A DNA stretch of 31,989 nt from an uncultured Planctomycetales bacterium (GTDB taxonomy: Bacteria > Planctomycetota > Phycisphaerae > UBA1845 > JAFGLZ01): NCBI GenBank assembly GCA_964390905.1, contig CAYMLO010000119.1, forward strand, positions 1 to 31,989, written 5' to 3'. Position 1 is the first letter of the stretch. Each line of letters starts with the position of its first letter. Both the position numbers and the translations under genes were made by a program. Below, in pieces: positions 2,728 through 19,307 of the stretch. The notes under the pieces were generated by a model, which did no database searches, was not told the origin of the DNA, and was given only the letters and a program-made list of their open reading frames with translations.

Positions 2728-2812
2728 ATGAGCGTCCTTGCCCCTGCCTGCCAGGAACGTCTATCCTCTGGGGGGTGTAGAGTTCGCGTCGCGCCGTCCA
2801 GGACCAGAAGCG

Positions 2813-4516
2813 ATGGCCACCGACGATCGGCCCTGGGTCAAATCCTACGACGAATGGGTCAACCCGGATCTTCCTGTCCCGGATACCTCCTATGTTGACC
2901 TGCTGGAGCAGACCTTCTGCGATTTCCCGGACCACGCGGCGTACCATTTCATGGGCGTCAGCGACACGTTCGGCGACCTGGACGAAAAGTCCCGGCGATT
3001 CGCCGGTTTCCTCGCCGAGATCGGTTGTGAGCCGGGAGACGTCGTCGGGATCTGCCTGCCCAACACCCCCCAGTACATGATCGCCCACGCGGGTGCGCTG
3101 CGAGCAGGATGCGTGGTCAGCGGGGTGTCGCCCCTCCTGTCTGCCAGAGAGATGGCGTATCAGCTCAGTGACTGTCGTGCCCGGGTCCTGGTGGTCCTGG
3201 ACGCGGTGTTCGAGCACAGGCTTCTGGACGTCCACGAGCAGGTGCCCGACCTCAGTCACGTCGTGGTGACCAACATCGCCGACTCGCTCCCGCGACTCAA
3301 GCGCCTCCTCGGCAAGATGCTGGGGAAGATCCCTACCGGTCGGACCGTCCCCGTGCCCGGCAAGACCATCGTCGGGTTCGGCGAGATCCTGCGAACGACC
3401 GCGCCGGGATGTCCCGAGGTCGAAGTAAGGCCCGAGGACATCTGCATGATCATGTACACCGGGGGGACGACGGGCCCGGCGAAGGGGGCCGAGATCACCC
3501 ACCGCAACCTGTCGGCCTTCGTTCATCAGGGCGTCAACTTGATTAACGCAGACCCGGGGGCGGAAATCTGCTGCTCCGCGGCGCCGTTCTTCCATATTGC
3601 CGGATCGGCTGTGAACATGTGGTGCATGGCCATGGCTTGCGCGCAGGTGCTTATCCCGGATCCGCGGAATACGCGCCACCTCGCCCGCCAGATCGCACGG
3701 CATCGGCCCACGTTCATGTTCAACGTCCCGTCGCTGTACCAGCTGCTCCTGGCCGACCCCGCATTCACGTCGCTGGACGCCTCCGTGTTTGAGCCGCTGC
3801 GGGCCTGCCTCTCCGGAGCTGCCCCCTTCTCGATGGAGACCATCCGAGGCCTGGAGCGTACGGTGGGCGAGGGCAAGGCCATCGAGCTCTACGGGATGAC
3901 CGAGGCGACGGCCCTCGTGACCATAAACCCCCTCGACGGGATCAAGAAACATGGCTCGGTGGGGCTGCCCATCCAGAATACGTGGGTCAAGCTGGTCGAC
4001 CTGGAAACCGGCAAGCGGGAGGTCCCCCTCGGCCAGGAAGGCGAGATCATCGTCAGCGGCCCTATCGTCATGAAGGGCTACCACAACAGGCCCGACGAGA
4101 CCGCCCACGCCCTGCGCGAGTTTCAGGGCAGGCGGTGGATGTTCACGGGCGACGTCGGCAGGATGGACGAGGACGGATACGTTTACATCATCGACCGGGC
4201 CAAGGACATGATCAACGTGGGGGGGTTCAAGGTCTTCTCGGTGGAGACCGAGGAGGTCCTGCACGAGCATCCGGCCGTGGCCTGCTGCGCTGTCGTGGGG
4301 CTGCCCAACCCCAAACGTCCGGGCAGCGAACTGGTCAAGGCCGTCATCCAACCTGCGCCCCAGTACAAGGATCGTGACGCCGCCGAGCTGAAGGACCAGA
4401 TCATCGACCACTGCCGTCGAAACCTGGCCCCTTACAAGGTGCCCAAGATCGTTGAGTTCGTGGACGAGATCCCGATGACGCCCGTCGGCAAGGTGGACAA
4501 GAAGGCCTTGCGGTGA
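2813..4516 (+). CDS. AMP-forming acyl-CoA synthetase / long-chain fatty acid-CoA ligase (ANL superfamily).
   Basis: AMP-binding signature MYTGGTTGPAKGAEITHRNL. YGMTEA, GDVGRMDEDGYVYIIDRAKDMI, and C-terminal PKIVEFVDEIPMTPVGKVDKKAL. The track start at 2738 (TTG) would abut the lysA stop. ATG at 2813 is preceded by AGGA and gives the typical N-terminus, so the start was placed there (uncertain). Confidence 0.85.
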   Translation: MATDDRPWVKSYDEWVNPDLPVPDTSYVDLLEQTFCDFPDHAAYHFMGVSDTFGDLDEKSRRFAGFLAEIGCEPGDVVGICLPNTPQYMIAHAGALRAGCVVSGVSPLLSAREMAYQLSDCRARVLVVLDAVFEHRLLDVHEQVPDLSHVVVTNIADSLPRLKRLLGKMLGKIPTGRTVPVPGKTIVGFGEILRTTAPGCPEVEVRPEDICMIMYTGGTTGPAKGAEITHRNLSAFVHQGVNLINADPGAEICCSAAPFFHIAGSAVNMWCMAMACAQVLIPDPRNTRHLARQIARHRPTFMFNVPSLYQLLLADPAFTSLDASVFEPLRACLSGAAPFSMETIRGLERTVGEGKAIELYGMTEATALVTINPLDGIKKHGSVGLPIQNTWVKLVDLETGKREVPLGQEGEIIVSGPIVMKGYHNRPDETAHALREFQGRRWMFTGDVGRMDEDGYVYIIDRAKDMINVGGFKVFSVETEEVLHEHPAVACCAVVGLPNPKRPGSELVKAVIQPAPQYKDRDAAELKDQIIDHCRRNLAPYKVPKIVEFVDEIPMTPVGKVDKKALR

Positions 4517-4561: not shown

Positions 4562-5020
4562 CTAGGCTACGGGTTCGAAGTGGCTGATTGCCAGGATGTT
4601 GTCCTTGGGTTCCTCGCTGAAGACCGCCTGGACGCGCATGCCGACGCGGGCGTTCTCGACCTTGCCGCACTCGAGCAGGTGGGCGACGGGCGTGTCGGCG
4701 CCGTCGAGCTTGACGAGGGCCAAGACGTAGGGGGGCGCCTTGGGCTGGTAGGGCTCGGCGTAGCGGATGACGGTAAAGCCGGTCACCTCGCCGGTGGGCG
4801 CGATCTCGACCCAGCGATCGGTCAGGTTGGAGAAGCAACGTTCACACGTCTGGCGCGGGGGAACGAACGTTTTGTCGCACGCCTCGCACCTGACGCCGAG
4901 GATCTTGCGCTCGTCGCGGAGCGCGACGATGAACTTGCTGCCGGTGGCCCCTGCGAAGTACTGGTAGGGCAGGGCCATCTTGCCTTCGATCACAAACGCG
5001 TCGCCCTTGTCCTCGCTCAT
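4562..5020 (-). CDS. DUF35 family protein: rubredoxin-like Zn ribbon plus OB-fold, the usual partner of SCP-x thiolase-fold enzymes.
   Basis: CEACDKTFVPPRQTCERCFS (CxxC-x8-CxxC ribbon) followed by an OB-fold region (VEIAPTGEVTGFTVIRY...VLALVKLDG). 152 aa. ATG start with GAGG upstream. Confidence 0.8.
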   Translation of the reverse strand: MSEDKGDAFVIEGKMALPYQYFAGATGSKFIVALRDERKILGVRCEACDKTFVPPRQTCERCFSNLTDRWVEIAPTGEVTGFTVIRYAEPYQPKAPPYVLALVKLDGADTPVAHLLECGKVENARVGMRVQAVFSEEPKDNILAISHFEPVA

Positions 5021-5061
5021 GTCGCTAGCCTCGTGTCTTTCCGATGACCCGGCTCTGCCGT

Positions 5062-5562
5062 CTAGCCGTCGCCGCCCGCTGCATCCTCGATGATCTCGAA
5101 GTGTTTGATGTCTGTCATGGCCCCTTTGCGCTCATCTGCGTAGACGACGCGGACGCGGAGCCCGCGGCGGACCTTCTGTGGGTCTGGCGCGTCCAGCAGA
5201 TGCCAGAGCGGTGCGTGGCCCTGCGTGCCGTCCAGGTGCGCCCAGCAGGCGACGTAGGGCGTCTTGCGCGTCTCACCCGTGAGCGGGTCGGGGCTGGCGT
5301 AGTAGACCACGTCGAACTCGTGGATCACGCCCTCGGGACCCAACTCTTCCCACTCGGTTGCCTCGACGCGGCAGACCGCACACACCTCCCGGGGGGGGAG
5401 TTGGTGGCGGCCGCACTGGGGGCACTTGTTGGCCATGATCCGCTTGTTGTCGCGGAGCTCCCGAAGGAACCGCCCCATCACCGGACCGGTCGAAAAACGC
5501 TGAGGAATCGAGAGGATCTGTCGCGAGACGATCAGTTCCTGATCGGTCGTGTCTTTACCCAT
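5062..5562 (-). CDS. DUF35 family protein (Zn ribbon plus OB-fold), second paralog.
   Basis: CPQCGRHQLPPREVCAVCRV ribbon followed by an OB-fold (GVIHEFDVVYYAS...YVACWAHLDG). 166 aa. The start overlaps the upstream thiolase-like gene stop by 8 nt. Confidence 0.8.
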   Translation of the reverse strand: MGKDTTDQELIVSRQILSIPQRFSTGPVMGRFLRELRDNKRIMANKCPQCGRHQLPPREVCAVCRVEATEWEELGPEGVIHEFDVVYYASPDPLTGETRKTPYVACWAHLDGTQGHAPLWHLLDAPDPQKVRRGLRVRVVYADERKGAMTDIKHFEIIEDAAGGDG

Positions 5563-6751
5563 GGCTCGCGGCTCCCAGTTGGGGCTTGTTCTTCGACAAC
5601 AGCATCAACACCGTCCACAAGGTCCCGCCGAAGCCGGAAGCGAGCGCCAGGCGAACGGGCCCGGGCACCTGGTGGTCGCCGGCCGTCCCGCGAACTTGCA
5701 TGGCCGCCTCGGCGACGCGGACCAGCGCGGTCGCGCCGATCGGATTGCTCGCCATCACGCCTCCGGAGGGGTTGATGGCGATCTTGCCGTCCGGGCCGAT
5801 CTCGTCGTTCTCGACCATCCGGAGGTGTTCGTCGCCCTCGAGCAGCAAGAACTCCCGCATCCAGTCGAGGCCCCACCAGGCGGACGGGTCGTATACCTCG
5901 AACACGTCGAGATCGCGCACCGGATCGGTAACGCCGTTCCGGGCGAACAGCCGCTCGGCCGCCGCGCGATGCGTCGTCTGCTCCGGGGTGAACATCAGGG
6001 TCTCTTCGCGGTGTACGGTTTCGTGATCGACGACCCAGGCGGGATTGGCGTCGAAAGCGTCGACCTTGTCTTCCGATGCAAAGATCACCGCGCACGCCCC
6101 GTCGCTCTGCGAGCACATGTGCAGCATCCGCAGCTCGCCGACCAGGCGCAGGTCGGTGTCGGCGTAATCCTTGAGGTGGTTGCGGTCGAGCTGTAACCGG
6201 CGGTGCGCCTTAGCGTTGCGCATGGCGTTCTCGTCCATAATCGTTCGCAGCTTGATGGCTGCGAGCTTGGCCCGCTCCTCGCCGAACTCCTCGATGACCT
6301 GCTGCGCCGTCGTGCCGGTCAGCGCGCCGGTCTGCAGCCCACGTCCCCAGAGCGGATCGGCCATGTTGGTGATCCCGCCGGTGGTGTGGCCCTCCTGGAG
6401 CTTCTCGAAGCCGATGGCCAGGACGACATCGTGCAACCCCGAGGCCACGACGTTGTCGGCTGCGCAGGCCAGCGTCGATCCCGTCGTGCCGCCGGTGGTC
6501 AGACGGATCCCCGACTTGCCCCACGCCCCGCTGCCCAGGACGTGCCACATGTCGGGTTGATGCACCATCTCGAACAGCTCCATGTTCCCGTGCAGGACGC
6601 AGTCGACGTCGTCCAGGGCCAGCCGGGCGTCTTCGAGGGCCTCGACGACGGCCTCGTGGATCATTTCGGGTTGGTTGACCTCTTCGCGGTGGCTGGAGAA
6701 CTTCGACATCCCACAGCCGATGACGGCCACGTTTCGGTTCTTGGTCTTCAT
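5555..6751 (-). CDS. SCP-x type thiolase-fold protein that appears to lack the nucleophilic Cys; Ltp2-like.
   Basis: N-terminus NVAVIGCGMSKF is typical of SCP2 thiolases. GSTLA....ASGLHDVVLAIGFEKL matches the SCP-x block C-ATGSTAL....QGGxxDxVLxxGxEKM, but with G in place of the catalytic Cys (by-eye alignment). C-terminal INPSGG and ALASGFGG. RBS AGGAAGG before ATG 6751. Confidence 0.8.
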   Translation of the reverse strand: MKTKNRNVAVIGCGMSKFSSHREEVNQPEMIHEAVVEALEDARLALDDVDCVLHGNMELFEMVHQPDMWHVLGSGAWGKSGIRLTTGGTTGSTLACAADNVVASGLHDVVLAIGFEKLQEGHTTGGITNMADPLWGRGLQTGALTGTTAQQVIEEFGEERAKLAAIKLRTIMDENAMRNAKAHRRLQLDRNHLKDYADTDLRLVGELRMLHMCSQSDGACAVIFASEDKVDAFDANPAWVVDHETVHREETLMFTPEQTTHRAAAERLFARNGVTDPVRDLDVFEVYDPSAWWGLDWMREFLLLEGDEHLRMVENDEIGPDGKIAINPSGGVMASNPIGATALVRVAEAAMQVRGTAGDHQVPGPVRLALASGFGGTLWTVLMLLSKNKPQLGAASHG

Positions 6752-6809
6752 GCCGTCTGCCTTCCTGCTGTCGTCCTCACTGCGAGCGCGCTGCGCAGCG
6801 TCTTCTTCC

Positions 6810-7952
6810 CTAGCTTTCCAGCACGACGACCGTCTGCAACTGTCCGGCCGGTCCGGTCGCGCCCTGGGCGACGGCGCGCTTGGCGTCGGCCACCTGCCGA
6901 TCGCCCGCCTCGCCGCGCAGTTGAATGACGGCCTCGGCCATCCGGGCCATGCCGCCCAGCATGAGGGGGTTGCCGGCCAACATCCCGCCCGAGCGGTTCA
7001 CGTTGTCGTTGTCCGGTCCGCCGTCGCTCAGCCACTGGCCACCGCCGCCGGCCTCGCATAGGCCCAACCCTTCTGCGTATTGGGGCAACTGGTGCGCGTA
7101 CTGATCGGCGATCTCGACGACGTCGAACGCCTGCTTCGGATTATCGATTCCTGCCATGGCGTAGGCGCGCTCGGCGGCTCGCTGCAGGGCGAAGTTGCCC
7201 GCCAGGTCGCGCTCGCCCAGGAAGAAGCTGTCGTGGCAATTGCCGAGGCCCGTGACCCAAATGGGGCGGTCGGTGATCTCGGCGGCGCGCTGCTCGCTCG
7301 CGAGAATCATCGCCACCGCGCCGTCGGACACCGGGTACATGAAGGCCTCGCGGATCGGGTCGGCGAGCATGGGCGACGCCAGCGCTTCCTGTCGGCTGAG
7401 CGGCTTGTTGTCCTGGGCCACGGGGTTCTTGCTCGCCCACTGCCGGGCCCGAACGACCAGGTCAGCCAACTGTTCTTCGGTTACCCCCGACCGGGCCATG
7501 TAGGCCTGCGCCTGCATCGCCGCCGTCGCGAGATAGTCCAGCCCCACCGGCCGGGTGTAGAACGGATCAAACGCCAGGTGCGTCACCATGTTTCGGCTGG
7601 CCGGCTGCGACTCCTTGCAGTGTCCGGCGAGCAGCACGACGTCGTGGTGGCCCGACAGGATGACCGACGTGGCGTAGTACACCCCCTGCGCACCGTCGGC
7701 GGCGACCTTCTCCTCGCTCTGGAAATGGGCGCCAACCACGTCCGTCATCGCGCTGTCGGAGATCGTGCGGGCGTCGAAGACGTCGTCGGAGACCGTAACG
7801 GCCGCCTGGATGCCGTCCTCGCCGAACGCGAGGTGAGTCTGTTGGCGGACGGCGTCGACCACCTCCCAAACCATCCCCTGCATGCGGGCGTCCCACCTGT
7901 TGGTCTCGAACTTGGTTTGCGCGACCGCGCAGATAGCGACACGATTGGCCAC
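6810..7952 (-). CDS. SCP-x type thiolase-fold protein, second paralog, also apparently lacking the nucleophilic Cys.
   Basis: RVAICAVAQTKF N-terminus. AADGAQG....LSGHHDVVLLAGHCKE aligns to CATGSTA....QGGxxDxVL with A in the Cys position. C-terminal GGMLAGNPL. The track start at 7982 is TTG and would overlap PHP by 25 nt. GTG at 7952 is preceded by GGAGGT at the correct spacing and gives an M-ANRVAICAV N-terminus, so that start was chosen. Confidence 0.75.
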   Translation of the reverse strand: MANRVAICAVAQTKFETNRWDARMQGMVWEVVDAVRQQTHLAFGEDGIQAAVTVSDDVFDARTISDSAMTDVVGAHFQSEEKVAADGAQGVYYATSVILSGHHDVVLLAGHCKESQPASRNMVTHLAFDPFYTRPVGLDYLATAAMQAQAYMARSGVTEEQLADLVVRARQWASKNPVAQDNKPLSRQEALASPMLADPIREAFMYPVSDGAVAMILASEQRAAEITDRPIWVTGLGNCHDSFFLGERDLAGNFALQRAAERAYAMAGIDNPKQAFDVVEIADQYAHQLPQYAEGLGLCEAGGGGQWLSDGGPDNDNVNRSGGMLAGNPLMLGGMARMAEAVIQLRGEAGDRQVADAKRAVAQGATGPAGQLQTVVVLES

Positions 7953-7957
7953 GGGCC

Positions 7958-8572
7958 CTACCTCCAACCGATGTTCGTCCAATCGGACTGCGACGCCGTC
8001 GAATTATAGCAGATCCGGGCCTGGCCGTTTTTGATGGCCCGGAGGATGGCGTCTGGCTCCCTCTGGCAGTCTACCTCGACCCAGGCCCGGCCGCAGCCGT
8101 CGCGTGTGTGCGAATCGTCGGCGGTCACCTTGGGGCGGGGGATTTCGTCGACGTCGTACTCCGGCGTGTAGAAGCCCCGCAGCGTCACCTCGACGGCGTG
8201 GATGGGCAGGGTCTTCTCGATCTCGTTGATCCGCTCGACGACCTGATCGACGGTGAAGCCGTATTGCGCCGGATGGTTCAGGATGTTGAGCTCCTCGCGC
8301 TCGCCGCGGATCTGGCCTACGTGGAGGTAGCCCCAGGCAAAGACGCTCCGCTCGACGCCCTTGAAGACGAGCATGCCCTCGAACTCGTCGGGGACGTCCT
8401 CGTAGGCGTCAGGCCTGAACAGGAAGTCGTGATCGGTTAGGGCCACGAAGTCGAAGCCGAGATCGGCGTAGACCCGCAGGACCTCATGAGGCGACAGATC
8501 GCCGTCGCTGCAGGTGGTGTGTGTGTGGAGCGCACCTTTCAATGAGCGTGGGTTGTCGGTGGGTTGCTCCAC
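7958..8572 (-). CDS. PHP-domain metal-dependent phosphoesterase.
   Basis: LHTHTTCSDGDLSP (PHP motif I HxHxxxSDG). FVALTDHD, NHP, HAVEV. 204 aa. Embedded between the MaoC and thiolase-like genes on the same strand. Confidence 0.75.
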   Translation of the reverse strand: MEQPTDNPRSLKGALHTHTTCSDGDLSPHEVLRVYADLGFDFVALTDHDFLFRPDAYEDVPDEFEGMLVFKGVERSVFAWGYLHVGQIRGEREELNILNHPAQYGFTVDQVVERINEIEKTLPIHAVEVTLRGFYTPEYDVDEIPRPKVTADDSHTRDGCGRAWVEVDCQREPDAILRAIKNGQARICYNSTASQSDWTNIGWR

Positions 8573-8575
8573 GAT

Positions 8576-9112
8576 CTACTCCGAGGGCGGCGTGGCGTCG
8601 CGCATCATGTACATGACCTTCCACTCGCCCTCCTGGCAGACCTCGTTGCGCTGATTCATCACCTTCACGTCGAACGTGACGATGCCCAGGCCGGGCTTGC
8701 TGGTGGTTCGCTTGCTGGCGATGGTCTGTATGACGTAGATGGTATCGCCGATGAAGACGGGGTTTCTGAAATCCCACGTCAGGCCGAGGAAGGCGACGAT
8801 CCGGTGCTGATCCGCCCCGGGCATGCGCGCCGCCAGCCCCGACGCGAGCGACAAGCCCAGCAGGCCGTGCGCGATCCGCTGACCGAAGGGGGTGATCTTG
8901 ACGAACTCGGCGTCGGTATGGATCACGTTGAAATCGCCGGACAGCCCCGCGAAGTTGACGATGTCCGTTTCGGTGACCGTCCGTGCCGGCGACGTCGTCT
9001 CATGCCCGACCGCGACGTCCTCGTAGTGAACACCATCTGAAACGTCCACGCGTTCGTCCTTTCCGTAAGTCAGGTCCGCCGGCCCAACGAGCCCTGGGTC
9101 GGGTAGGCTCAC
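8576..9112 (-). CDS. MaoC-like (R)-specific enoyl-CoA hydratase/dehydratase, hot-dog fold.
   Basis: FAGLSGDFNVIHTDAEFVK....GQRIAHGLLGLSL....GDTIYV is the MaoC dehydratase signature. 178 aa. The start codon is GTG at 9112 with no strong RBS, so the start is uncertain. Confidence 0.78.
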   Translation of the reverse strand: MSLPDPGLVGPADLTYGKDERVDVSDGVHYEDVAVGHETTSPARTVTETDIVNFAGLSGDFNVIHTDAEFVKITPFGQRIAHGLLGLSLASGLAARMPGADQHRIVAFLGLTWDFRNPVFIGDTIYVIQTIASKRTTSKPGLGIVTFDVKVMNQRNEVCQEGEWKVMYMMRDATPPSE

Positions 9113-9254
9113 ACGACGAATCGACTACCATACCCGTGTTGATAGGGGGTTTCAACGCACGCCGCCGTGTCCATGGGAGGTCTGTAGGTTCTCCAGGACG
9201 GATCGCTGCTCGGGTCAGCCGGCCACACCGAGGGAACCGGCTTGGCTCGCCACA

Positions 9255-10403
9255 TCACATCGTCCGCTTGACGATCTCTCGGGCGATGATGAGGCGCTGG
9301 ATCTCCGAGGTGCCGGCGCCGATGACGCCGAGCTTGGCGTCACGCATCATCCGCTCGACTTCGTATTCCTGCATGTACCCGTATCCGCCGTGAATCTGGA
9401 CGGCTTCGGAGGCGGCCCGCATGGCCGCCTCGGACGCGAACAGCTTGGCGTGCGACGCCTCGGCCGAGCAGCGGACCCCGCGATCACACAGGTCGGCGGC
9501 TTTGTAGGTGAGCATCCGAGCGGCCTCGAGTTCCATGCTCATGTTGGCCAGCTTCTCGGCGACCATCTCGAACATCACGATGGGCTGCCCGAACTGCTGC
9601 CGTTCCTTGGCGTAGGCGATCGACTTGTCGAGCGCCGCCTGGATCATGCCCACCCCCAACGCGCCGCCGACTGCCCGCTCGACGTCGAGCCCGCCGAGCA
9701 GGATCCCCAGCGCTTCGTTTTCGCCCTTCACCAGGTTCTCGGTGGGCACGCGGCAGTCTTTGAAGAACAGCTCGCCCGTCGGCGATCCGCGGACGCCCAT
9801 CTTGTGCAGCGGCTCGCCGACCGAGAATCCGGGAAAACACCGCTCGATGATGAAGAAGCTGATGCCGCGGGGGCCGGCCTCCTTGTCCGTCCGGGCGTAG
9901 ACCAGAAAGACGTCGGCCACCGGGGCGTTGGTGATGAACGTCTTGCTGCCGTTCAGGACGTACTCGTCCCCTTGCCGGACCGCCGAGGTGGTCAGAGACA
10001 GCACGTCCGACCCCGCGCCCGGCTCGGTCATGGCAAGAGACCCCAGCTTCTTGCCACTGGCCAGGTCGGGCAGGTACTTCTGCTTCTGCTCCTCCGAGCC
10101 ATTGCACGCGAGCGAATGGTTGACCAACACTGCGGACGCCAGGTACGACAACGCCGTGGAGGGGCAGGCGTACGTGACCTCCTCGGCGATCAGGCAGCAC
10201 GTCAGAACCGATTGGTCCGTCCCGCCGTACGCTTCCGGCACCAGCACGCCCATCAGGCCCAGCTCGCTCATTTTCTTGAACGTCTCGACCGGGAACCGCG
10301 ACTCGCGGTCGACCTCCGCGGCCAGCGGCGCGATCTCGTTCCTTGCAAACTTGCGGACCATGTTCTGGATGTCGCGCTGCTCGTCGGTCAGGCTGAAATC
10401 CAT
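9255..10403 (-). CDS. Acyl-CoA dehydrogenase (FAD-dependent).
   Basis: MDFSLTDEQRDIQNMVRKFARNEIAP....YGGYGYMQEYEVERMMRDAKLGVIGAGTSEIQRLIIAREI, canonical ACAD N- and C-terminal blocks. The track start at 10448 adds 15 residues. ATG at 10403 is preceded by GGAAGGAG, so it was chosen (382 aa). Confidence 0.9.
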   Translation of the reverse strand: MDFSLTDEQRDIQNMVRKFARNEIAPLAAEVDRESRFPVETFKKMSELGLMGVLVPEAYGGTDQSVLTCCLIAEEVTYACPSTALSYLASAVLVNHSLACNGSEEQKQKYLPDLASGKKLGSLAMTEPGAGSDVLSLTTSAVRQGDEYVLNGSKTFITNAPVADVFLVYARTDKEAGPRGISFFIIERCFPGFSVGEPLHKMGVRGSPTGELFFKDCRVPTENLVKGENEALGILLGGLDVERAVGGALGVGMIQAALDKSIAYAKERQQFGQPIVMFEMVAEKLANMSMELEAARMLTYKAADLCDRGVRCSAEASHAKLFASEAAMRAASEAVQIHGGYGYMQEYEVERMMRDAKLGVIGAGTSEIQRLIIAREIVKRTM

Positions 10404-11892: not shown

Positions 11893-13908
11893 CTACTTCA
11901 CCCGCTCGGGCTTCGCGAAGTCGCTGGTCATTTCGACCGGTAGGCGGAAGACGTCGCCGTCTTTGTTGCAGAAGTACAGCCGGGAGTCCGATGGCCGTCG
12001 GCCGTGCCCGTCGGCCCAGAAGGCGTAGAAGTCCGGGTGGGCGTGGACGGGTCGGCGGACGTAGGTGTGGTTGTACGCGCTGTCCTGGGTCATCTGGCGC
12101 GTCATCTTCCAGTGTCTGCCCTGGTCGCGGCTGACCCACATGGCCACCTCACCCCCCGGGTTGAAGGGCTGCGGCCCGGTCTGCGTCGGGCCGATGATCC
12201 GCCACGCGTTCTCGGCCTCGATATAGATCGACCCGGTGTCGTAGTTGTTGTCCGAGATGATGTCACCGCCTTGCACGTCCCATTCCGTGCCGGTCCACCG
12301 AGCGGTGGTCCAGGTTCGCGGCATGTTTTTCGGGCCGGACTCATAGCCCTTGCTCGTGACGTAGAGGATGATGGGGTGGCCCTTGGCGTCGAAGTTGATG
12401 TCTTTCAGATAGACATTGAGCCGCTTGCTTTCGTACTCGCAGGCCAGCGCCGGATTGTCGGCCTTGGACAGCATCAATTCGAGCGCCTGGCCCTGAACGC
12501 TCTTCCAGGTCTCCCCGAAGTCGTCTGATTCCATGTAGTAGAGGTTGGTCCGCCAGTTCAAGCCCTTGGTATCCGGATGGTAGTTGAAGGCGATGCCGAC
12601 CTTCTTGTCTTGGTAGCACCGGCTGATCTGGTAGTGGCCGCGGGCAATCCTCGAGAGGAACCGACGCTCGGACCAGTTCACCCCGTCCGGGCTGGTCATC
12701 ATGCAATTGGACCGGCCCTCGGTGTAGTGCGTGTGGATGAACAGGAACCCCCTGCCCGGCAGGTACCAGGGATGAGGATAGGAGTAGTTGCCCTCCCAGA
12801 CACATTCGAACTGATCGACGGCGTGCGGCTTGGTGCTTCTTGAGATGTAGGACGGCCGGCTGGTCCCGTGGCTGCTGGAGAAGATCCAGATCGTGCCCTT
12901 GTCGTCGACGCTGATGACGGGATTGTCGTGGGCGTCGCTGGTCTTCTTGTCCAGCAGGAGGGTCGGGCGGGGGACCTGGCCGGTCCTGTGGTCGTAGTAG
13001 GAGACCATGTGGACCAGCGCGGTGTTGCTGCCTTTCCTGGTTCCGCCGTAGGTGAAGAAGGTCTTGTCGGCCTGCTTGACGTACCAGGCATGGGGGATGT
13101 GCTTGGCGCAGTAGGTGCCCAGCCCGCCGCTGTACTTGTATTTGTACTCGTCGTTGGAGCGTTGGTTGTAGTACCAGATCCCGCGGTAGCCGTCGTCCTT
13201 TCGGTTCATGATCAAGGCCGCCTTCTTCGCACGCCTGGCTGTCAGCGTACCGGGCGCCTGACTGGCCCACGTCTGCCCGGCCAGCCCGGCCTGGGTCCAT
13301 CGCCCGGCCAGTCCCTTGTCGAGATCTCCGTTTTGCTTGCCGGCGGCGACGGCGGCAATCTCCTCGTCACACAACACGCGTCGCCAGAGTCGGACGTCGG
13401 CCAACCAGCCATTCACGAAGCGATCGCTCTCGTTCAGGGCGCCGATGAACAGATCTCCCGACGGAACGGTCATCTTGCCCGGCGCCTTGGTCGTGGCCGT
13501 CAGCTTGCCGTCCCGGTAGGCCTTAATCACCTTGCCGTCGTAGCTGCCGGCGTAGTGCACCCAGATGTTGGCCTTGGGGGACGGGGCGGTGGCATGGGCG
13601 TAGGCGGGATCCTGGTGCCCGACGAGCATCCGCACGTTCCCTTTGTACAGATAGAACGTAAAGACATTGTTCGCCCGACCGCAGTTCAAGAAGACCTGTG
13701 ATCCCCCAGCCGATCGCAGCTTGACCCAGGCCGAGACGGTGATGGCCTGCGGATTGAGGGCGACGGCCCTGGCGGGAACGTGGTAGGCCGTCCTGCCGTC
13801 AAACGCGACGCCGTCGGCTGGCGCCGCGAGTGCAGCCGCACACGATCCCATCACGGTTGCGCAGGCGAATAGAAGACGTGCCCACCATCGACTGCATCGA
13901 TCCCTCAT
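11893..13908 (-). CDS. Secreted protein with an N-terminal LamG / concanavalin-A-like lectin domain followed by a BNR_4-like beta-propeller; putative polysaccharide-active enzyme.
   Basis: Signal peptide MRDRCSRWWARLLFACATVMGSCAAALAAPA. The LamG pattern is SAWVKL...FIGAL...GWLADVRLWRRVL. The second domain is rich in aromatic and Gly residues (YYNQRSNDEYKYKYSGG...FSSSHGTS). The track start at 13968 is GTG and overlaps the upstream gene. ATG at 13908 gives the signal peptide directly. Confidence 0.6.
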   Translation of the reverse strand: MRDRCSRWWARLLFACATVMGSCAAALAAPADGVAFDGRTAYHVPARAVALNPQAITVSAWVKLRSAGGSQVFLNCGRANNVFTFYLYKGNVRMLVGHQDPAYAHATAPSPKANIWVHYAGSYDGKVIKAYRDGKLTATTKAPGKMTVPSGDLFIGALNESDRFVNGWLADVRLWRRVLCDEEIAAVAAGKQNGDLDKGLAGRWTQAGLAGQTWASQAPGTLTARRAKKAALIMNRKDDGYRGIWYYNQRSNDEYKYKYSGGLGTYCAKHIPHAWYVKQADKTFFTYGGTRKGSNTALVHMVSYYDHRTGQVPRPTLLLDKKTSDAHDNPVISVDDKGTIWIFSSSHGTSRPSYISRSTKPHAVDQFECVWEGNYSYPHPWYLPGRGFLFIHTHYTEGRSNCMMTSPDGVNWSERRFLSRIARGHYQISRCYQDKKVGIAFNYHPDTKGLNWRTNLYYMESDDFGETWKSVQGQALELMLSKADNPALACEYESKRLNVYLKDINFDAKGHPIILYVTSKGYESGPKNMPRTWTTARWTGTEWDVQGGDIISDNNYDTGSIYIEAENAWRIIGPTQTGPQPFNPGGEVAMWVSRDQGRHWKMTRQMTQDSAYNHTYVRRPVHAHPDFYAFWADGHGRRPSDSRLYFCNKDGDVFRLPVEMTSDFAKPERVK

Positions 13909-13931
13909 TGTGGTAGACCCCGTAGCTGAAC

Positions 13932-15869
13932 TCACTGCTTGCAGAACTTGTACCCCTCGATCCCCCACGGCGGGAGGTTGGTCGTGGTGATCTTGCTGGT
14001 GCTCTTTTTGCAGGGATGAACCTTGCCCGTTGCCGCGTCGATCCTGCCGACCTGATACGCACCCGTCATGCCGAGCACGTCCGGGTTCAGGCCTATCTCG
14101 GCCGTGCCCGCCTTCTGTCCCAGGTTCGCCACGATCAACAGATAGGTGTCCTTGCTCGCCTTGTACACCACGCTGTGGAACGCTGGCTCCGAGGACGTCG
14201 CGGCGACGACGTTCTGCCCGGGCGTGTTGAACACGGCGGCCCGCTCGACGTCGATCTGGGCCAGGACTCGCCAGTAGGGCAGGATGAAGTCGTAGAGTGC
14301 GTCATCGGGTGCGCAGCCGAACACCAGGCCTTTGGTGTGTCGGGCCTTGATTCCCAGGACCAGGTGCGGGTAGAGACCCCACGCAGCCATCTTCGCCATG
14401 CCCTCGGCGTTCCGGTACCTGGGAAGGTCCAGCATCCAGGGCATACACACCCCGCCGCCCAGCATGCCCTTGTACGCCGCCTCGTCCAGACCGGAGAGCA
14501 TCTTGCGGTCCGACCCGGTCTCGCCGGGCAAGTACGCATCGAAGCACAGATTGGCGAGCACGCCGGAATTGAACGAGCCCTGATGACCGATCAAGAACCC
14601 CTCGGGCCCGACGATGTCCCGGAGTTGTCTGGTGAACAGGAAGTAGGCCCGAGCGGGGACATGCGTGCCGGTCTTGGAGAAATGCGTGTCACCCAGTGGG
14701 GTCTCTGGTTTGTATCTATTGTCATGATAAGAGGTTGCGCCAGGTCCGTGCCAGTCGACGTAGATGCCGTCCCAGTTGCGCTTGCAGTACTTCTGGAAGA
14801 ATCGGGTCTTGAGGGCGTACGGCTCGACGCCGCGCATGTAGAGGCCGACGCGGAGCCCCTTGCGGTGCGCGTAGTCGATCATGCGAACCATGTCCTTGTG
14901 GTTCCGGACCACGGCGTAGTCTGCGTGGGGATAACCGTTGCTGCCGCGCTGCAGCATCCATTCGTGGTGGAGGATCAGCATCGTGGCGTGCCGGGCGACC
15001 ATCTTGTCGATCTGCTCGTTGCTGGGGTACCAGTCCTTCGTGTCGAGCCAGTTGACCCAATGGTAGACGCGCTGTCCGATGACATTGCTCTTGGGCTTGC
15101 CCGTGACGGCGGCGCCCAGGCCCAGCGCGATCCGGTTCTGGTATCGGAGCGGCGCGGCCAGGGCTGCGTCGCCCCCACCCAAGGTCCAGGTGACCCGTCC
15201 GTCCTTCTGCTGGAAGCCCACCGCTCCGCCGATGGCCTTCTTATGCTCGACGATCACCTCGATCTCGTTGGTGAAGCTCCGTGCGGGGTGCTTGCTCGTG
15301 CCGAAGGCCGCGCGGGCGGATGGGAATCCGCCGGTCTTGATGGACACGTTGCGGTCGCGGTACTTGGGACCCTTTCGGACCGCTTCAGACACGGCGAATG
15401 ACACGCTTGCGCAGGATAGGGCAAAGGGCTTGTCTTCCAGGCGGGCGTCCAGATCGATGAACACCGCACCCTCGGGATGGATCTCATAGGACAGAGCGAT
15501 CTGCCACGGACCTGCCGCGCCATCCGCGGTACGGGGTCTGCCCTGCACCGCGATGCTGACCTTCTCGGGCCTGCCCGACAGCTTGAGCAGCTTGGCCTCT
15601 GCGTCGTTGGCGAGGGCGTAGGTGCGGTCCTTGTCCTGCAGCTCGAGCCTGGGGAACGTGGTCTCGGGTGCTGTCAAGGCAGTGTTCCATCCGGATCCGT
15701 CGTGGAGCTGCAGTTTGGAGATCTCGCCTCCCCTTGCCAGATCGACCACGAGGACGAAGTGATCGCCGCGCACCTTGACGGCTCGCTCGTCCCGCTGGAC
15801 CGACAACCCGCCGCGCGCAGCAGGGGCAATCGCCATTACCGCGAACAGCAGCGCAACCGGTGTTTTCAT
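13932..15869 (-). CDS. Secreted hypothetical protein, 645 aa. Putative glycoside-hydrolase-like TIM-barrel protein; family not recognised.
   Basis: Signal peptide MKTPVALLFAVMAIAPAARG. Central region with alternating beta/alpha character and conserved acidic and aromatic residues (LILHHEWM, GLRVGLYMRG, DGIYVDWHG). Long ORF with coding-type GC3 bias. Function inferred only weakly. Confidence 0.55.
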   Translation of the reverse strand: MKTPVALLFAVMAIAPAARGGLSVQRDERAVKVRGDHFVLVVDLARGGEISKLQLHDGSGWNTALTAPETTFPRLELQDKDRTYALANDAEAKLLKLSGRPEKVSIAVQGRPRTADGAAGPWQIALSYEIHPEGAVFIDLDARLEDKPFALSCASVSFAVSEAVRKGPKYRDRNVSIKTGGFPSARAAFGTSKHPARSFTNEIEVIVEHKKAIGGAVGFQQKDGRVTWTLGGGDAALAAPLRYQNRIALGLGAAVTGKPKSNVIGQRVYHWVNWLDTKDWYPSNEQIDKMVARHATMLILHHEWMLQRGSNGYPHADYAVVRNHKDMVRMIDYAHRKGLRVGLYMRGVEPYALKTRFFQKYCKRNWDGIYVDWHGPGATSYHDNRYKPETPLGDTHFSKTGTHVPARAYFLFTRQLRDIVGPEGFLIGHQGSFNSGVLANLCFDAYLPGETGSDRKMLSGLDEAAYKGMLGGGVCMPWMLDLPRYRNAEGMAKMAAWGLYPHLVLGIKARHTKGLVFGCAPDDALYDFILPYWRVLAQIDVERAAVFNTPGQNVVAATSSEPAFHSVVYKASKDTYLLIVANLGQKAGTAEIGLNPDVLGMTGAYQVGRIDAATGKVHPCKKSTSKITTTNLPPWGIEGYKFCKQ

Positions 15870-16155
15870 TGGAAGCTCCTGAGATCAACCGCATGCCCGC
15901 GCGCCGAACGTGGCGCGCGAAGCCGACCCTTCCGTATTCGTGTCCGACGACTATACCCACGCTCGGGTCGAAGCGAAAGGCGACGCGGCGAGCGGATCCG
16001 CCGTGCTTACGGATGACCTCTCGCAGATCCCATGGCGCCCTTCTGGTAGACTGGTATGGCGCCCTGCGGCGGCTTGGCCGGCTGTGTCGGATCGGGCACC
16101 GCCGGAGGGCCTTGGCACGGTGAGTCCCGGGCGAGGCCGGGAGGCAGGTTGCCGC

Positions 16156-17226
16156 ATGAACACACAGACCCCCCAGCGCATGGGATTCGCCTGCGCCTAC
16201 ACGCCCCTCCCGATTATCGATGCGGCCGGCTTCGTGCCCTTTCGCGTGCTGCCCATGGGCGACGCTCCGGATCAGGCCGGATCGTTCTTGCACGACAACA
16301 TCTGTCCCCATGTCAAGCGGGTCCTCGACCGCGCGTTGGGCGGCGACGTGCCCGAACTGGCCGGCGTGGTCTTGATGAATAGCTGCGACGCGATGCGACG
16401 GGTGTCGGATGCCTGGGCGACGGCCCGACCGGCGGATCGGGTCATCACGCTCGACCTGCCCATCGCATGCGACGACACGTCCGTGGCCCACTTCAAAGCG
16501 GAACTCGCACGGCTGATGGAGCGCCTCTCGGAATGGTCGGGTCGTCCGGTGACGGTCGAGGAGGTCGTTCAGAGCGTTGATCGCTACAACGCGTTGGCAG
16601 CCGGGCTGGAGCGCCTCGCTGACTACGCAGCAGTGGGCGCTCTGTCCGGGGGGCACCGGGTCCTCCAGGAGATCTTTAACCGATCGGTGACCCGGTCGGT
16701 GGACGAATCCCTGACCGAACTGGACCGGTTGGCGGCCGGGCAAGGCGATTCTCAACAGACCGATCCGGGCGTGCCGGTGCTCTTGTTCGGCAACGTGCTG
16801 CCGGACCCGGAGGCGCTTGAACTGCTCGAGGCCTGTGGCTGCCGTGTCGTGGCCGATGACGTCTGCACGGGGTCGAGGCAACTGGTGTGCTACCAGCTCG
16901 ACGGCCAGGAGGACCCGTTGGCGCAGCTTGCCCATGCGATCCTGTCCAGGCCGGCGTGTGCGCGGACGCTCGTCAGCCCGCAGGCGGGACTCTTGGCCGG
17001 GCAGGTGGCGGCTCGGGCGAGAGAATGTGGAGCGAAGGGCGCGATCGCCCACGTGATGAAGTTCTGTGACCCCTATTTGGCCCGGCTACCGGCCATCCGA
17101 GACGCGCTTCGTGAGGCCGGCCTGCCCCTGCTCGTGCTGGAGGGTGACTGCACGCTGCGGTCGCTGGGTCAACACCGAACGCGGATCGAGGCCTTCGTCG
17201 AGATGCTGGGAGGGTCCCCGCCATGA
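16156..17226 (+). CDS. 2-hydroxyacyl-CoA dehydratase / benzoyl-CoA reductase family D-component subunit (HgdB/BcrB-like, PF06050).
   Basis: N-terminus MGFACAYTPLPIIDAAGFVPFRV (the family's CxYxPxEIIxAAG start). Conserved Cys ligands ICPH, MNSCDAMRR, KFCDPY. The track start at 15910 adds about 80 residues of low-complexity sequence. ATG at 16156 is preceded by GGGAGG, so it was chosen. Confidence 0.75.
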   Translation: MNTQTPQRMGFACAYTPLPIIDAAGFVPFRVLPMGDAPDQAGSFLHDNICPHVKRVLDRALGGDVPELAGVVLMNSCDAMRRVSDAWATARPADRVITLDLPIACDDTSVAHFKAELARLMERLSEWSGRPVTVEEVVQSVDRYNALAAGLERLADYAAVGALSGGHRVLQEIFNRSVTRSVDESLTELDRLAAGQGDSQQTDPGVPVLLFGNVLPDPEALELLEACGCRVVADDVCTGSRQLVCYQLDGQEDPLAQLAHAILSRPACARTLVSPQAGLLAGQVAARARECGAKGAIAHVMKFCDPYLARLPAIRDALREAGLPLLVLEGDCTLRSLGQHRTRIEAFVEMLGGSPP

Positions 17227-18473: not shown

Positions 18474-19307
18474 ATGGGGATCGGGTTTCGGGGCCCGGGG
18501 TCCGAGGCGAGTGGGTTCGACATGTATTATCTTGGCGTAGACATTGGCAGCTTGACGTGTGATGCGGTCCTGATCGACGAGGACGGGTGGGTGATGGCCT
18601 GGTCGGTGGTTCCGACGGGCGCGAGCAGTGTCCGGGCTATCGATCGTGTGCGGGCCGAAGTACTCGGCGCTGCTGGGATCAGGTCGGAGGATCTGGGCGC
18701 CGTGATCTCGACCGGCTACGGCCGGGATCGCGTTGACGGACGATTGGCGGCGGTGACCGAGATCACCTGCCACGCCCGGGGGATTCAGAGGTTACTGCCC
18801 GGCACCGAGATGTTGGTGGACATCGGTGGCCAAGACAGCAAGGCCGTCCGCCTCGACGGGGAGGGGCGGGTGGTGGAGTTCGCGATGAACGACAAGTGCG
18901 CGGCCGGGACGGGGCGATTCCTGGAGGCGATGGCCCGCGCGCTGGAGGTGGAGGTGGATCAGCTAGGCGGCCTGGACGACGGAGCGCGGGGCAACCTGAC
19001 ACTGAGCAGCATGTGCACGGTATTCGCAGAGAGCGAGGTGGTCTCGCTGATCGCCGAGGGGACCGACGTGTCCGAGATCGCGCGGGGCCTACACCGAGCG
19101 ATTGCTTCGCGGACCCAGGCGTTGGTCAAGCGGGTCGATCCTGCGGTTTCGGGTCTCCGTGTGGCGATGTCCGGCGGCGTAGCGCGAAACCCCGGCGTGG
19201 TCCGGGCGCTCGGCGCCGCCTTGGACTGCGACATCACCGTGCCCCCCGAGCCCGACATCGTCGGCGCCCTGGGCGCCGCCCTCATCGCCCGAGAGCGCGC
19301 CGGCTAG
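18474..19307 (+). CDS. CoA-substrate-specific enzyme activase (BadF/BadG/BcrA/BcrD/HgdC ATPase family); electron-transfer activator for the dehydratase.
   Basis: MYYLGVDIGSLTCDAVLID (ASKHA phosphate-1). ISTGYGRD. DIGGQDSKAV. MNDKCAAGTGRFLE. SGGVARNPGVVRALGAAL. The two Cys probably bridge the [4Fe-4S] cluster. The start may instead be the internal ATG at 18519. Confidence 0.85.
   Translation: MGIGFRGPGSEASGFDMYYLGVDIGSLTCDAVLIDEDGWVMAWSVVPTGASSVRAIDRVRAEVLGAAGIRSEDLGAVISTGYGRDRVDGRLAAVTEITCHARGIQRLLPGTEMLVDIGGQDSKAVRLDGEGRVVEFAMNDKCAAGTGRFLEAMARALEVEVDQLGGLDDGARGNLTLSSMCTVFAESEVVSLIAEGTDVSEIARGLHRAIASRTQALVKRVDPAVSGLRVAMSGGVARNPGVVRALGAALDCDITVPPEPDIVGALGAALIARERAG

Follow-up and report, generated by a model that had tools for sequence, protein, structure and literature searches.

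A conserved PHP, thiolase-fold and DUF35 gene module of uncultured anaerobic bacteria as a candidate retro-aldol pathway for branched acyl-CoAs

Introduction

How could an operon equipped with an acyl-CoA dehydrogenase and a hydratase go on to cleave its acyl-CoA when both of its thiolase-fold proteins have lost the residues of a thiolase? The question is raised by a stretch of 31,989 nucleotides (the window) from contig CAYMLO010000119.1 of an uncultured Planctomycetales bacterium, in which seven co-directional minus-strand genes at positions 4562-10403 encode an acyl-CoA dehydrogenase (ACAD), a MaoC hydratase, a PHP-like protein (PHP), two SCP2-type thiolase-fold proteins (ThlB and ThlA) and two DUF35 proteins (DUF35b and DUF35a). 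A model that had seen the letters and the open reading frames (ORFs) of this stretch had read the operon as an Ltp2/ChsH-style aldolase module for a branched acyl-CoA (the original prediction), an interpretation that, as a whole, is partly supported by the analysis presented here. Our own answer, to which we give somewhat better than an even chance, is that the module constitutes a non-thiolytic, retro-aldol beta-oxidation-like pathway. The answer draws on the active-site residues of the two thiolase-fold proteins, on the type of the ACAD and on a gene order that is conserved across phyla and has the PHP gene at its core.

Active-site residues of the thiolase-fold proteins

For the assignment of active-site residues, ThlA and ThlB were aligned to solved SCP2 and archaeal thiolases. 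The position of the thiolase nucleophilic Cys is occupied by Gly88 in ThlA (TTGGTTGST, as compared to NNNCSTGST of 6hrv) and by Ala in ThlB; the HDCF motif (HDAF in the archaeal thiolase) reads Y287-D-P-S in ThlA and A-D-Q-Y in ThlB; and the His of the GHP motif is replaced by Asn in both proteins, within S-N-P (Asn336) in the former and G-N-P in the latter. Since the Cys/His/Cys residues are replaced in both, neither ThlA nor ThlB can, judging from the alignment, be a thiolase. Intact Cys-His-His/Cys triads, which the original prediction had named as incompatible with its reading, were looked for and found to be lost from both proteins. The substitutions in ThlA are not peculiar to the window: Gly88, Tyr287, Asp288 and Pro289 are invariant in 120 ThlA homologues, and Asn336 is present in 119 of the 120. 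The NCBIfam thiolase and BbsB models all score far below their cutoffs for both proteins, the best NCBIfam match being PRK08313 (NF006180; 255 bits, cutoff 514) for ThlA and PRK06066 (219 bits, below cutoff) for ThlB, which reaches 161 bits with PRK07937 (NF005924; cutoff 419). A ketosynthase-type decarboxylase was also considered and rejected, because the two His residues required by such an enzyme are lost as well.

Tyr287 of ThlA stands exactly at the position of the base in characterised thiolase-fold aldolases, and ThlA is our candidate for the catalytic retro-aldolase subunit; ThlB, which has no candidate base residue, is presumed to be a non-catalytic partner. ThlA homologues are 69-89% identical across phyla in the protein search and 60-89% identical in the locus comparison (54-83% for ThlB), and a 34-sequence alignment of ThlA contains more than 150 invariant columns, including the aldolase-position Tyr and several His/Glu motifs. 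The invariant, clade-specific His/Glu-rich motifs (SSHRE, HGNMELFEMVHQPDxWH, EKLQEGHTTGGITNMADPLW and DHxTxHREE) lie mostly in segments that are unplaced in the AlphaFold monomer (pLDDT below 50), and we read them as interface or active-site loops. The model of ThlA matches every DUF35-partnered thiolase-fold family with TM scores of 0.74-0.81, and similarity of the predicted fold cannot separate an aldolase from a thiolase. By sequence, too, ThlA is no closer to the aldolases Ltp2 and Sal than to true thiolases.

Both DUF35 proteins possess a canonical C4 zinc ribbon (C-x2-C-x10-C-x2-C). A 596-aa protein from Hydrogenedentes (P0061) is a natural fusion of an OB-fold (DUF35) to a ThlA-type protein 77% identical to ThlA, and provides independent support for a physical contact between DUF35 and ThlA. 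In Desulfobacterales, DUF35b carries a fused SCP2 lipid-binding domain, either alone or together with a ligase. Such DUF35b-SCP2 fusions are found at L001 11228-13579, at L002 11247-12407 and at many other Desulfobacterales loci, many of them with a complete AMP-forming acyl-CoA ligase as well. The DUF35b-ligase fusion would tether substrate activation to the thiolase-fold complex.

Conservation and distribution of the module

The PHP family was used as the probe in a genome scan, which yielded 78 loci, all from metagenome-assembled genomes (MAGs) of anoxic habitats; synteny was counted by tblastn. The order PHP-ThlB-ThlA-DUF35b-DUF35a is complete in 43 of the 55 loci that extend far enough, and ThlB follows PHP at a distance of at most 3 kb in 58 of the 72 informative loci, with two further loci having ThlB farther downstream, behind an ACAD gene pair. 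Most of the exceptions are PHP paralogues (46-52% identity) in unrelated contexts. ThlB is directly upstream of ThlA throughout the locus comparison, and in several loci it begins right at the end of the PHP gene or within it; a distance of 5 nt or an overlap between the two is seen in many loci. The collinear loci belong to Planctomycetota, Hydrogenedentota, Desulfobacterales, Syntrophales, Myxococcales and other groups, and ThlA homologues were found in Phycisphaerae, Hydrogenedentes, Thermodesulfobacteriota, Myxococcales and CSSED10-310, among others; neighbourhoods from three phyla each contain the series PHP-ThlB-ThlA-DUF35-DUF35. A gene order repeated in dozens of unrelated genomes is more than chance. 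PHP is thus a core gene, the most faithful partner of the thiolase-fold and DUF35 genes across phyla.

ACAD and MaoC are frequent companions of this five-gene core. The complete seven-gene unit is found again in Phycisphaerae, Hydrogenedentes and others, each time between flanking genes that are unrelated; in loci of Planctomycetes and Hydrogenedentes the ACAD gene (64-84% identity) lies upstream of the core, and a MaoC gene is present in 32 of the 78 loci. The Desulfobacterales have a different layout, in which an ACAD and a degenerate ACAD partner precede the core and a MaoC gene and another ACAD follow it, often together with a second Thl/DUF35 set that has no PHP gene of its own. More generally, the surroundings of the module in Desulfobacterota comprise acyl-CoA ligases, TetR regulators, paired ACADs and SCP2 domains. 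In some Hydrogenedentes and on a complete Planctomycetaceae chromosome, the five-gene core stands alone among unrelated genes. At one locus (L089 9595-9957), the operon is interrupted between ThlB and ThlA by a 120-aa gene with 23S_rRNA_IVP / bAvd domains, which are of a kind linked to diversity-generating retroelements.

The comparison of neighbourhoods showed that the module is conserved across phyla, while changing the weight of its parts with respect to the original prediction: PHP, which had merely been listed there and which the Ltp2 analogy does not explain, is a core gene, whereas the ligase convergent to the operon is not conserved. The window ligase was not found beside the module in the closest relatives; homologues of it, 47-53% identical, were confined to two Desulfobacterota clusters, and its link to the operon is doubtful. 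A search for cultured hosts through the genome scan, a cluster look-up and a plasmid collection returned nothing but MAGs, or relatives that are at most 34% identical. Members of the module are named acetyl-CoA acetyltransferase (acetyl-CoA C-acetyltransferase), thiolase family protein or hypothetical protein in public annotation.

Organization of the operon

The ORF list and Pfam bear out the seven co-directional genes and the domains assigned to them in the original prediction. The genes are listed below in the order of the operon, followed by the convergent ligase gene.

9255..10403, minus strand: ACAD; 382 aa from the second ATG, the ORF opening at 10448; four Acyl-CoA_dh domains in Pfam (E 1e-20 to 1e-47)
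8576..9112, minus strand: MaoC hydratase; 178 aa, or 157 aa from the gene callers' start at 9049; PF01575 (E 4e-25)
7958..8572, minus strand: PHP-like protein; 204 aa; PF02811 (24.8 bits) and PF13263 (21.2 bits), both slightly below the gathering score
6810..7982, minus strand: ThlB, SCP2-type thiolase-fold protein; 390 aa from TTG, the likely start being GTG at 7952 (380 aa); Thiolase_C_1 (E 4e-25)
5555..6751, minus strand: ThlA, SCP2-type thiolase-fold protein; 398 aa; Thiolase_C_1 (E 5e-22)
5062..5562, minus strand: DUF35b (DUFb), Zn-ribbon and OB-fold protein; 166 aa; zf-ChsH2 (E 2e-8) and OB_ChsH2_C (E 2e-5)
4562..5020, minus strand: DUF35a (DUFa), Zn-ribbon and OB-fold protein, last gene of the operon; 152 aa; OB_ChsH2_C (E 2e-15) and zf-ChsH2 (E 2e-8)
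2738..4516, plus strand: AMP-forming acyl-CoA ligase, convergent; likely start 2813 (567 aa); AMP-binding (E 4e-87)

With the longest-ORF starts, the spacings from ACAD to DUF35a are 142, 3, -25, 58, -8 and 41 nt, in agreement with the gaps of at most 142 nt and the two overlaps described previously; with the public gene-caller starts of identical contigs they become 205, 3, 5, 58, -8 and 41 nt, leaving a gap of 205 nt and, as the sole overlap, the 8 nt shared by ThlA and DUF35b. The ligase does converge on the 3' end of the operon, its stop lying 45 nt from that of the last DUF35 gene. Rfam detected no RNA element within the operon, and the terminator scan found terminator-like sites only at the frequency expected from shuffled sequence; the promoter scan found two weak promoter-like sites, compared to 0.4 expected. 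Neither Pfam nor the public gene calls revealed a 3-hydroxyacyl-CoA dehydrogenase among the operon genes, and in the annotated loci, the window contig included, no electron-transfer flavoprotein or biosynthetic genes adjoin the module.

The best solved relatives of the ACAD are the isovaleryl-CoA dehydrogenases (IVDs) 4o5m and 4kto (372 bits; human IVD, 324 bits), and the alignment with 4o5m is gap-free over 381 residues at 47.5% identity. The segments LDVER and IGAGTSE of the window protein align with GLDYER and IGAGTSE of 4o5m, which places a Glu (in LDVER) at the position of the IVD base and an Ala (in IGAGTSE) at that of Glu376 in medium-chain acyl-CoA dehydrogenase (MCAD); we take the former to be the Glu254 position of IVD and assign the latter likewise. 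The IVD-type base arrangement is common to all operon-linked ACADs of the Planctomycete and Hydrogenedentes types, and the module-linked ACADs of Desulfobacterota that align well also have no MCAD-type Glu, whereas degenerate partners and a few outlying copies differ. The arrangement points to beta-branched acyl-CoAs as substrates, a suggestive assignment with which the branched or tertiary-carbon substrate of the original prediction is in good agreement. The MaoC protein is of the (R)-specific enoyl-CoA hydratase type; among solved structures it comes closest to small MaoC and PhaJ-type hydratases, and it contains the hydratase-2 motif FAGLSGDFNVIH at residue 54, with the catalytic Asp and His present.

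The PHP protein

The AF2 model of PHP is confident (pLDDT 91.5), and its best folds in Foldseek are TM0559, RNase AM and BVU_3505 (probability 1.0), with Cv1693 also matched. The invariant residues of the family (H16, H18, D23, H48, E74, H84, H100, E128, D152, D153 and H155) make up a full PHP metal site, with H-x-H, D, H, E, H and D-x-H ligands. Given the invariant ligands and the confidently predicted fold, the protein is very likely an active metalloenzyme. Small PHP phosphoesterases such as TM0559, RNase AM and the pAp phosphatase Cv1693, whose functions are nucleotide-related or unknown, share with it the fold and the complete conserved set of His/Asp/Glu ligands; their identity to the window protein is nevertheless just 12-21%, and no known member partners a thiolase-fold/DUF35 complex or acts in acyl-CoA metabolism. 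The model of the CehA/McbA family, which represents non-phosphate hydrolases among the PHP relatives, matches the N-terminus of the protein. A search of the full-text literature for the combination of DUF35, thiolase and PHP found no paper.

The PHP paralogues (46-52% identity) occur in Rokubacteria beside MqnA/D-like and radical-SAM genes, in UBP15 and elsewhere, and their neighbourhoods displayed no common theme that would hint at a function. In a Rokubacteria MAG (L075 9995-13295; similarly L076 and L077), a paralogue 46-50% identical to the operon PHP is found. In L075, the one of these loci that was annotated, it lies directly upstream of an MqnA/MqnD-family (VitK2_biosynth) gene and beside a CofH/MqnC-type radical-SAM gene; futalosine-pathway menaquinone genes are thus in its vicinity, and two MaoC genes are located 4 kb away. 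This menaquinone context is a possible hint at the ancestral role of the PHP clade.

Comparison with known thiolase-fold/DUF35 systems

As the original prediction stated and Pfam bears out, the combination of dehydrogenase, MaoC hydratase, SCP2-thiolase-fold protein and DUF35 is the composition of the aldolase system that cleaves steroid side chains. The specific Ltp2/ChsH-style identity did not hold, and a better analogue was found elsewhere. In a tblastn search of plasmid records, the nearest relatives from cultured organisms, at ~33% identity, included a set from Streptomyces clavuligerus that consists, in this order, of a 339-aa OB-fold protein and two thiolase-domain proteins of 354 and 388 aa. 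The first of these two falls into PRK07937 ("lipid-transfer protein"; 550 bits, cutoff 419) and the second into PRK08313 (713 bits, cutoff 514), while the 339-aa protein is a tandem DUF35, the N-terminal half of which is the best match of DUF35b and the C-terminal half that of DUF35a. Like the window, this set has two adjacent paralogous thiolase-fold genes and two DUF35 domains, matching the pairing of A and B subunits. An A-type signature (Gly / E-x-Y-x-P-[FS] / N-P-I-G-A) is shared by ThlA, the PRK08313 protein, a Rhodococcus relative and the paralogues of the second sets in Desulfobacterota, whereas none of the B-type subunits in an alignment of window, actinobacterial and Desulfobacterota proteins has the Tyr.

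The two sets are nonetheless far apart. Identities are 31-34%, with ThlA and ThlB far below the NCBIfam cutoffs; the DUF35 genes of the window are unfused and follow the Thl genes, whereas in the actinobacterial set they are tandem-fused and precede them; and the window clade has its own His/Glu-rich motifs, a 2-residue insertion in ThlA and an attached PHP gene, and occurs in anaerobic non-actinobacteria. In sequence terms, the four-protein set of the window looks like a distant, unfused version of the PRK07937/PRK08313 heteromeric type, rather than of Ltp2/ChsH. We take PRK08313 and PRK07937 to be the Ltp3 and Ltp4 families; the gene order Rv3521-ltp4(Rv3522)-ltp3(Rv3523) is documented, and Rv3521 is presumably a DUF35 protein. 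According to the part of PMC6273163 that cites Wilbrink 2012, Ltp3 and Ltp4 are aldol-lyases required only for branched (C24-alkyl) sterol side chains, and the support given there for the two proteins consists of genetic evidence only.

Ltp2 itself, in complex with the DUF35 domain of ChsH2 (PDB 6ok1), resembles the window set in its SCP2-thiolase fold and C4 zinc-ribbon/OB partner (TM 0.77-0.78 for ThlA), and both Ltp2 and ThlA have lost the nucleophilic Cys and have Tyr as the first residue of the H/Y-D-x-x motif. The substrate of Ltp2 is a tertiary 3-hydroxyacyl-CoA, on which it works once an ACAD and a MaoC hydratase have acted (PMC12329534), and the window has an ACAD and a MaoC. In Ltp2 the motif is YDHF, with Tyr294 as the base, Tyr344 as the acid and the His forming an oxyanion hole; in Sal it is YDCY, with Tyr302 as the base, Cys304 as the acid and Gly in place of the nucleophilic Cys; and in TbSLP it is YDCF, the authors noting an XDCX pattern shared with SCP-2 thiolases (PMC12329534). 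We equate this aldolase Y-D-x-x motif with the thiolase HDCF motif from the alignment of ThlA to solved thiolases, and place Asn336 of ThlA at the position of Ltp2 Tyr344 and Sal Gln352 by spacing (294+50, 302+50). On these assignments, YDHF of Ltp2 corresponds to YDPS of ThlA and Tyr344 to Asn. Furthermore, DUF35 is fused to the hydratase subunit (ChsH2) in the Ltp2 system, whereas MaoC and the two DUF35 proteins of the window are separate ORFs; Ltp2 is a homodimer, whereas a heterodimer of two paralogues is predicted for the window; and Ltp2 is not among the sequence matches of ThlA at E < 1e-3.

The bile-acid aldolase Sal-Shy(DUF35) (PDB 9myr) shares with ThlA the Gly at the nucleophile position, the Tyr base and an amide at the GHP position (Gln in Sal, Asn in ThlA), and its alpha-beta-beta-alpha arrangement of DUF35 subunits is the one predicted for the window set. 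The essential Cys304 of Sal is, however, replaced by Pro289, invariant in the 120 ThlA homologues; the zinc ribbon is of the C3H1 type in the Sal-Shy system and C4 in the window; and Sal is a weak sequence match to ThlA (E 1e-4). Stand-alone DUF35 partners are known from Atf1/ChsH4 (and MSMEG_6561), where a thiolase-fold aldolase and its DUF35 protein are encoded by separate genes of one operon (PMC10398937). This system is unfused like that of the window, and differs from it in having a single aldolase gene, a single DUF35 and no PHP, in an actinobacterial sterol context. BbsAB benzoylsuccinyl-CoA thiolase, the archaeal thiolase/HMG-CoA synthase/DUF35 complex and the acyltransferases PhlABC and MucABC also have DUF35 proteins stapling SCP2-type dimers (TM 0.74-0.81); all of them use the active-site Cys that is absent from ThlA and ThlB, and none has a PHP partner.

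What is known already is therefore a thiolase-fold/DUF35 retro-aldolase acting after ACAD and MaoC, as well as DUF35 partners that stand alone. The unfused and duplicated parts stressed in the original prediction are indeed separate ORFs, two of each kind, their unfused state having the precedent of Atf1/ChsH4. New are the heteromeric, strongly conserved clade with its own active-site signature, the constant association with a PHP metalloprotein and the spread through uncultured anaerobes of at least six phyla. A literature search on DUF35 in anaerobes found no relevant paper.

Genomic surroundings of the operon

The window is a chromosomal piece. The closest relatives of the operon proteins are from Planctomycetales and Phycisphaerae MAGs, and a prepilin-type N_methyl and DUF1559 protein, of a family characteristic of the Planctomycete phylum, is encoded at 29218-30345. 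Two co-directional HGD-D family proteins (438 and 416 aa) and a BcrAD/BadFG-type activator ATPase (277 aa) are encoded at 15910-19307 on the plus strand; the HGD-D proteins resemble 2-hydroxyacyl-CoA dehydratase and benzoyl-CoA reductase, and this dehydratase-like operon identifies its host as an anaerobe that employs radical acyl-CoA chemistry. The HGD-like operon, a GFO oxidoreductase and a DAP decarboxylase were each considered as further parts of the module and rejected, because none is a conserved neighbour in any other genome.

Elsewhere in the window, a 388-aa protein (19382-20548, minus strand) has a RidA/L-PSP domain confined to residues 270-380, its C-terminal third, preceded by a long N-terminal part that has no Pfam match. 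At 21087-23604 (plus strand), a 260-aa protein that lacks a Pfam match and contains a striking repeat stretch rich in His, Asp, Val and Gly (GHDVGDVGHDVGDVGHDV...) overlaps a downstream 586-aa SPFH/Band-7 (flotillin-like) protein, which has a long Glu/Ala/Lys-rich coiled region. Genes at 11893-15869 and 25062-26213 (both minus strand) encode a LamG and BNR sialidase-like protein (691 aa), an unannotated 645-aa protein and a BNR_2 protein; upstream on the contig (L083 16074-21197), a GH172 protein and a giant Peptidase_C10 protein are found. These glycan-degradation-type genes are typical Planctomycete content and unrelated to the operon.

Discussion

The pathway that we favour would begin with the desaturation of a beta-branched acyl-CoA to the 2-enoyl-CoA by the IVD-type ACAD, followed by the addition of water by MaoC to give a (3R)-3-hydroxyacyl-CoA. 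With a beta-branched substrate, this intermediate would be a tertiary alcohol that no dehydrogenase could oxidise, which would explain the replacement of oxidation and thiolysis. A heteromer of ThlA, ThlB, DUF35b and DUF35a would then cleave the bond between C-alpha and C-beta, releasing acetyl-CoA (or propionyl-CoA) and a ketone or an aldehyde. The fused tandem DUF35 of S. clavuligerus implies a 1:1:1:1 unit of ThlA:ThlB:DUF35b:DUF35a, which would be a pseudo-symmetric form of the alpha-beta-beta-alpha complexes of Ltp2 and Sal with DUF35; the alpha2-beta2-type heteromer envisaged in the original prediction fits such an arrangement, as a pseudo-alpha2beta2 of two paralogous thiolase-fold and two DUF35 gene products. 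Within the complex, Tyr287 of ThlA would act as the base on the 3-hydroxyl, ThlB may widen or shape the pocket, and the two zinc-ribbon/OB proteins would staple the dimer. We assign PHP to this functional unit, in which it is probably either a further subunit or the enzyme that acts next; our guess is a metal-dependent hydrolase whose target would be a phosphate or ester group in the substrate, in the product or in the CoA moiety.

For the window, a short 3-methyl-branched acyl-CoA would be the favoured class of substrate, for example along a route from isovaleryl-CoA through 3-methylcrotonyl-CoA and 3-hydroxy-3-methylbutyryl-CoA to acetone and acetyl-CoA. The SCP2 fusions and paired ACADs of Desulfobacterota suggest long lipophilic, isoprenoid or steroid-like, branched acyl-CoAs instead. 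Bacterial phytol degradation yields a C18 methyl ketone, a product consistent with retro-aldol cleavage in the SCP2-fused versions. Literature searches on 3-hydroxyisovaleryl-CoA, acetone and leucine, and on the phytol-derived C18 ketone, yielded nothing useful.

Several observations weigh against this pathway. ThlA scores 255 bits with PRK08313, whose cutoff is 514, and is ~33% identical to the actinobacterial proteins. It is devoid of the second catalytic residue of both characterised aldolases, with Pro in place of the His of Ltp2 and the Cys of Sal, and Asn for Tyr344 of Ltp2; of the retro-aldol claim of the original prediction, the loss of the thiolase residues and the aldolase-type Tyr of ThlA stand, whereas the His of Ltp2 or the Cys of Sal is missing. 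The clade-specific His/Glu motifs of ThlA are absent from the actinobacterial relatives and could denote a chemistry different from that modelled on Ltp2 and Sal. None of the known thiolase-fold aldolase systems has a role for a PHP protein. Butyryl-CoA dehydrogenase-type proteins match the ACAD nearly as well as the IVDs do (354 bits as compared to 372), and the acryloyl-CoA reductase model reaches 418 bits, below its cutoff. One of the weak promoter-like sites lies within the gap between ACAD and MaoC; the five-gene core occurs without ACAD or MaoC in several genomes, so that the beta-oxidation framing may fit some lineages only; and all relatives of the module are MAGs.

In one alternative, PHP would be the real catalyst, a metal-dependent lyase or hydrolase acting on a CoA ester much as HMG-CoA lyase and other metal-dependent barrel lyases do, with ThlA, ThlB and DUF35 as a scaffold for binding and channelling acyl-CoA, or a condensation or cleavage would be coupled to dephosphorylation. 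No other gene of the core is linked to it as faithfully as PHP, whose metal ligands are invariant, ThlA and ThlB have lost most known catalytic residues, the PHP relatives include non-phosphate hydrolases of the CehA/McbA family, and a catalytic PHP would explain why the five genes can stand alone. The characterised close structural relatives of PHP are, however, all phosphoesterases, the paralogues in unrelated contexts suggest a general hydrolase that was recruited to the module, the second Thl/DUF35 sets of the same clusters manage without a PHP of their own, and the invariant Tyr of ThlA sits exactly where the aldolases have their base; we consider this alternative rather unlikely. The score of the ACAD with the model of acryloyl-CoA reductase, a reductive enzyme, would also suit a module working in the synthetic direction, in which acetyl-CoA and a ketone or aldehyde undergo aldol condensation, MaoC dehydrates the product and the ACAD serves as an enoyl-CoA reductase, supplying branched acyl-CoA for lipids or secondary metabolites. 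DUF35 complexes do pull unfavourable condensations in the archaeal thiolase/HMG-CoA synthase complex, a structural neighbour, and a hydrolytic step by PHP could render the condensation irreversible. Condensation onto ketones is nevertheless thermodynamically poor, the Desulfobacterota neighbours (ligases, TetR, paired ACADs, SCP2) have the layout of a catabolic cluster and the module is not adjoined by an electron-transfer flavoprotein or biosynthetic genes, all of which makes synthesis improbable to our eyes.

The lost catalytic residues and the SCP2 domains fused to DUF35b in Desulfobacterota could likewise be taken to indicate that the complex is not an enzyme at all and binds and transfers lipids or acyl-CoA, in line with Ltp in its meaning of "lipid-transfer protein"; PHP would then be a housekeeping phosphatase that is co-transcribed with the complex but otherwise unrelated to it, for which its paralogues in unrelated contexts would speak. 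Against this, the 60-89% identity of ThlA, its more than 150 invariant columns and its Tyr and His/Glu motifs are typical of an active site, and ACAD and hydratase genes are in tight linkage with the module; we hold such a role to be quite improbable. Finally, the best sequence and fold matches of the two proteins are SCP2 thiolases, the archaeal thiolase and BbsB, and the public name is acetyl-CoA C-acetyltransferase, as would befit an ordinary thiolytic or condensing enzyme, be it an SCP-x/BbsB-type thiolase, an archaeal thiolase/HMG-CoA synthase/DUF35 complex or a PhlABC-type acyltransferase. This is the explanation to which we assign the least credit, close to none: ThlA has Gly and ThlB has Ala in place of the nucleophilic Cys, the His and Cys of HDCF and the His of GHP are replaced in both, with the ThlA replacements invariant or nearly so among the 120 homologues, the NCBIfam thiolase and BbsB models remain far below cutoff, and neither protein is KAS-III-like or HMG-CoA-synthase-like.

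Beyond the retro-aldol pathway favoured here, a more specific and more speculative proposal may be put forward, which we regard as unlikely in its entirety. PHP, ThlB, ThlA, DUF35b and DUF35a would form an unrecognised five-subunit enzyme of anaerobes, in which a trinuclear-metal PHP is joined to a thiolase-fold/DUF35 scaffold with a new active site made up of Tyr287 and the His/Glu motifs. Together with the IVD-type ACAD and MaoC, it would provide a carboxylation-independent (biotin- and ATP-free) route for beta-methyl-branched acyl-CoAs, taking isovaleryl-CoA from leucine to acetone and acetyl-CoA, and the SCP2-fused versions of Desulfobacterota would convert phytenoyl-CoA-like isoprenoid acids to methyl ketones.

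Public databases carry these proteins as acetyl-CoA acetyltransferases or hypothetical proteins; the sequences rule out thiolases. For anaerobic carbon cycling, the module would make the oxygen-free breakdown of beta-branched acids, whether leucine-derived, isoprenoid or steroid-like, directly testable. The conserved PHP partner is without precedent in this enzyme class and could bring to light a new PHP function or a coupled reaction of a new kind; such aldolases are also of interest as catalysts that form C-C bonds. If the retro-aldol pathway is correct, thiolase-fold/DUF35 retro-aldolases would not be confined to aerobic steroid degraders, and would instead be a widespread tool with which the anaerobes of sediments and digesters (Planctomycetota, Hydrogenedentota, Desulfobacterota and others) deal with acyl-CoAs beyond the reach of normal beta-oxidation.

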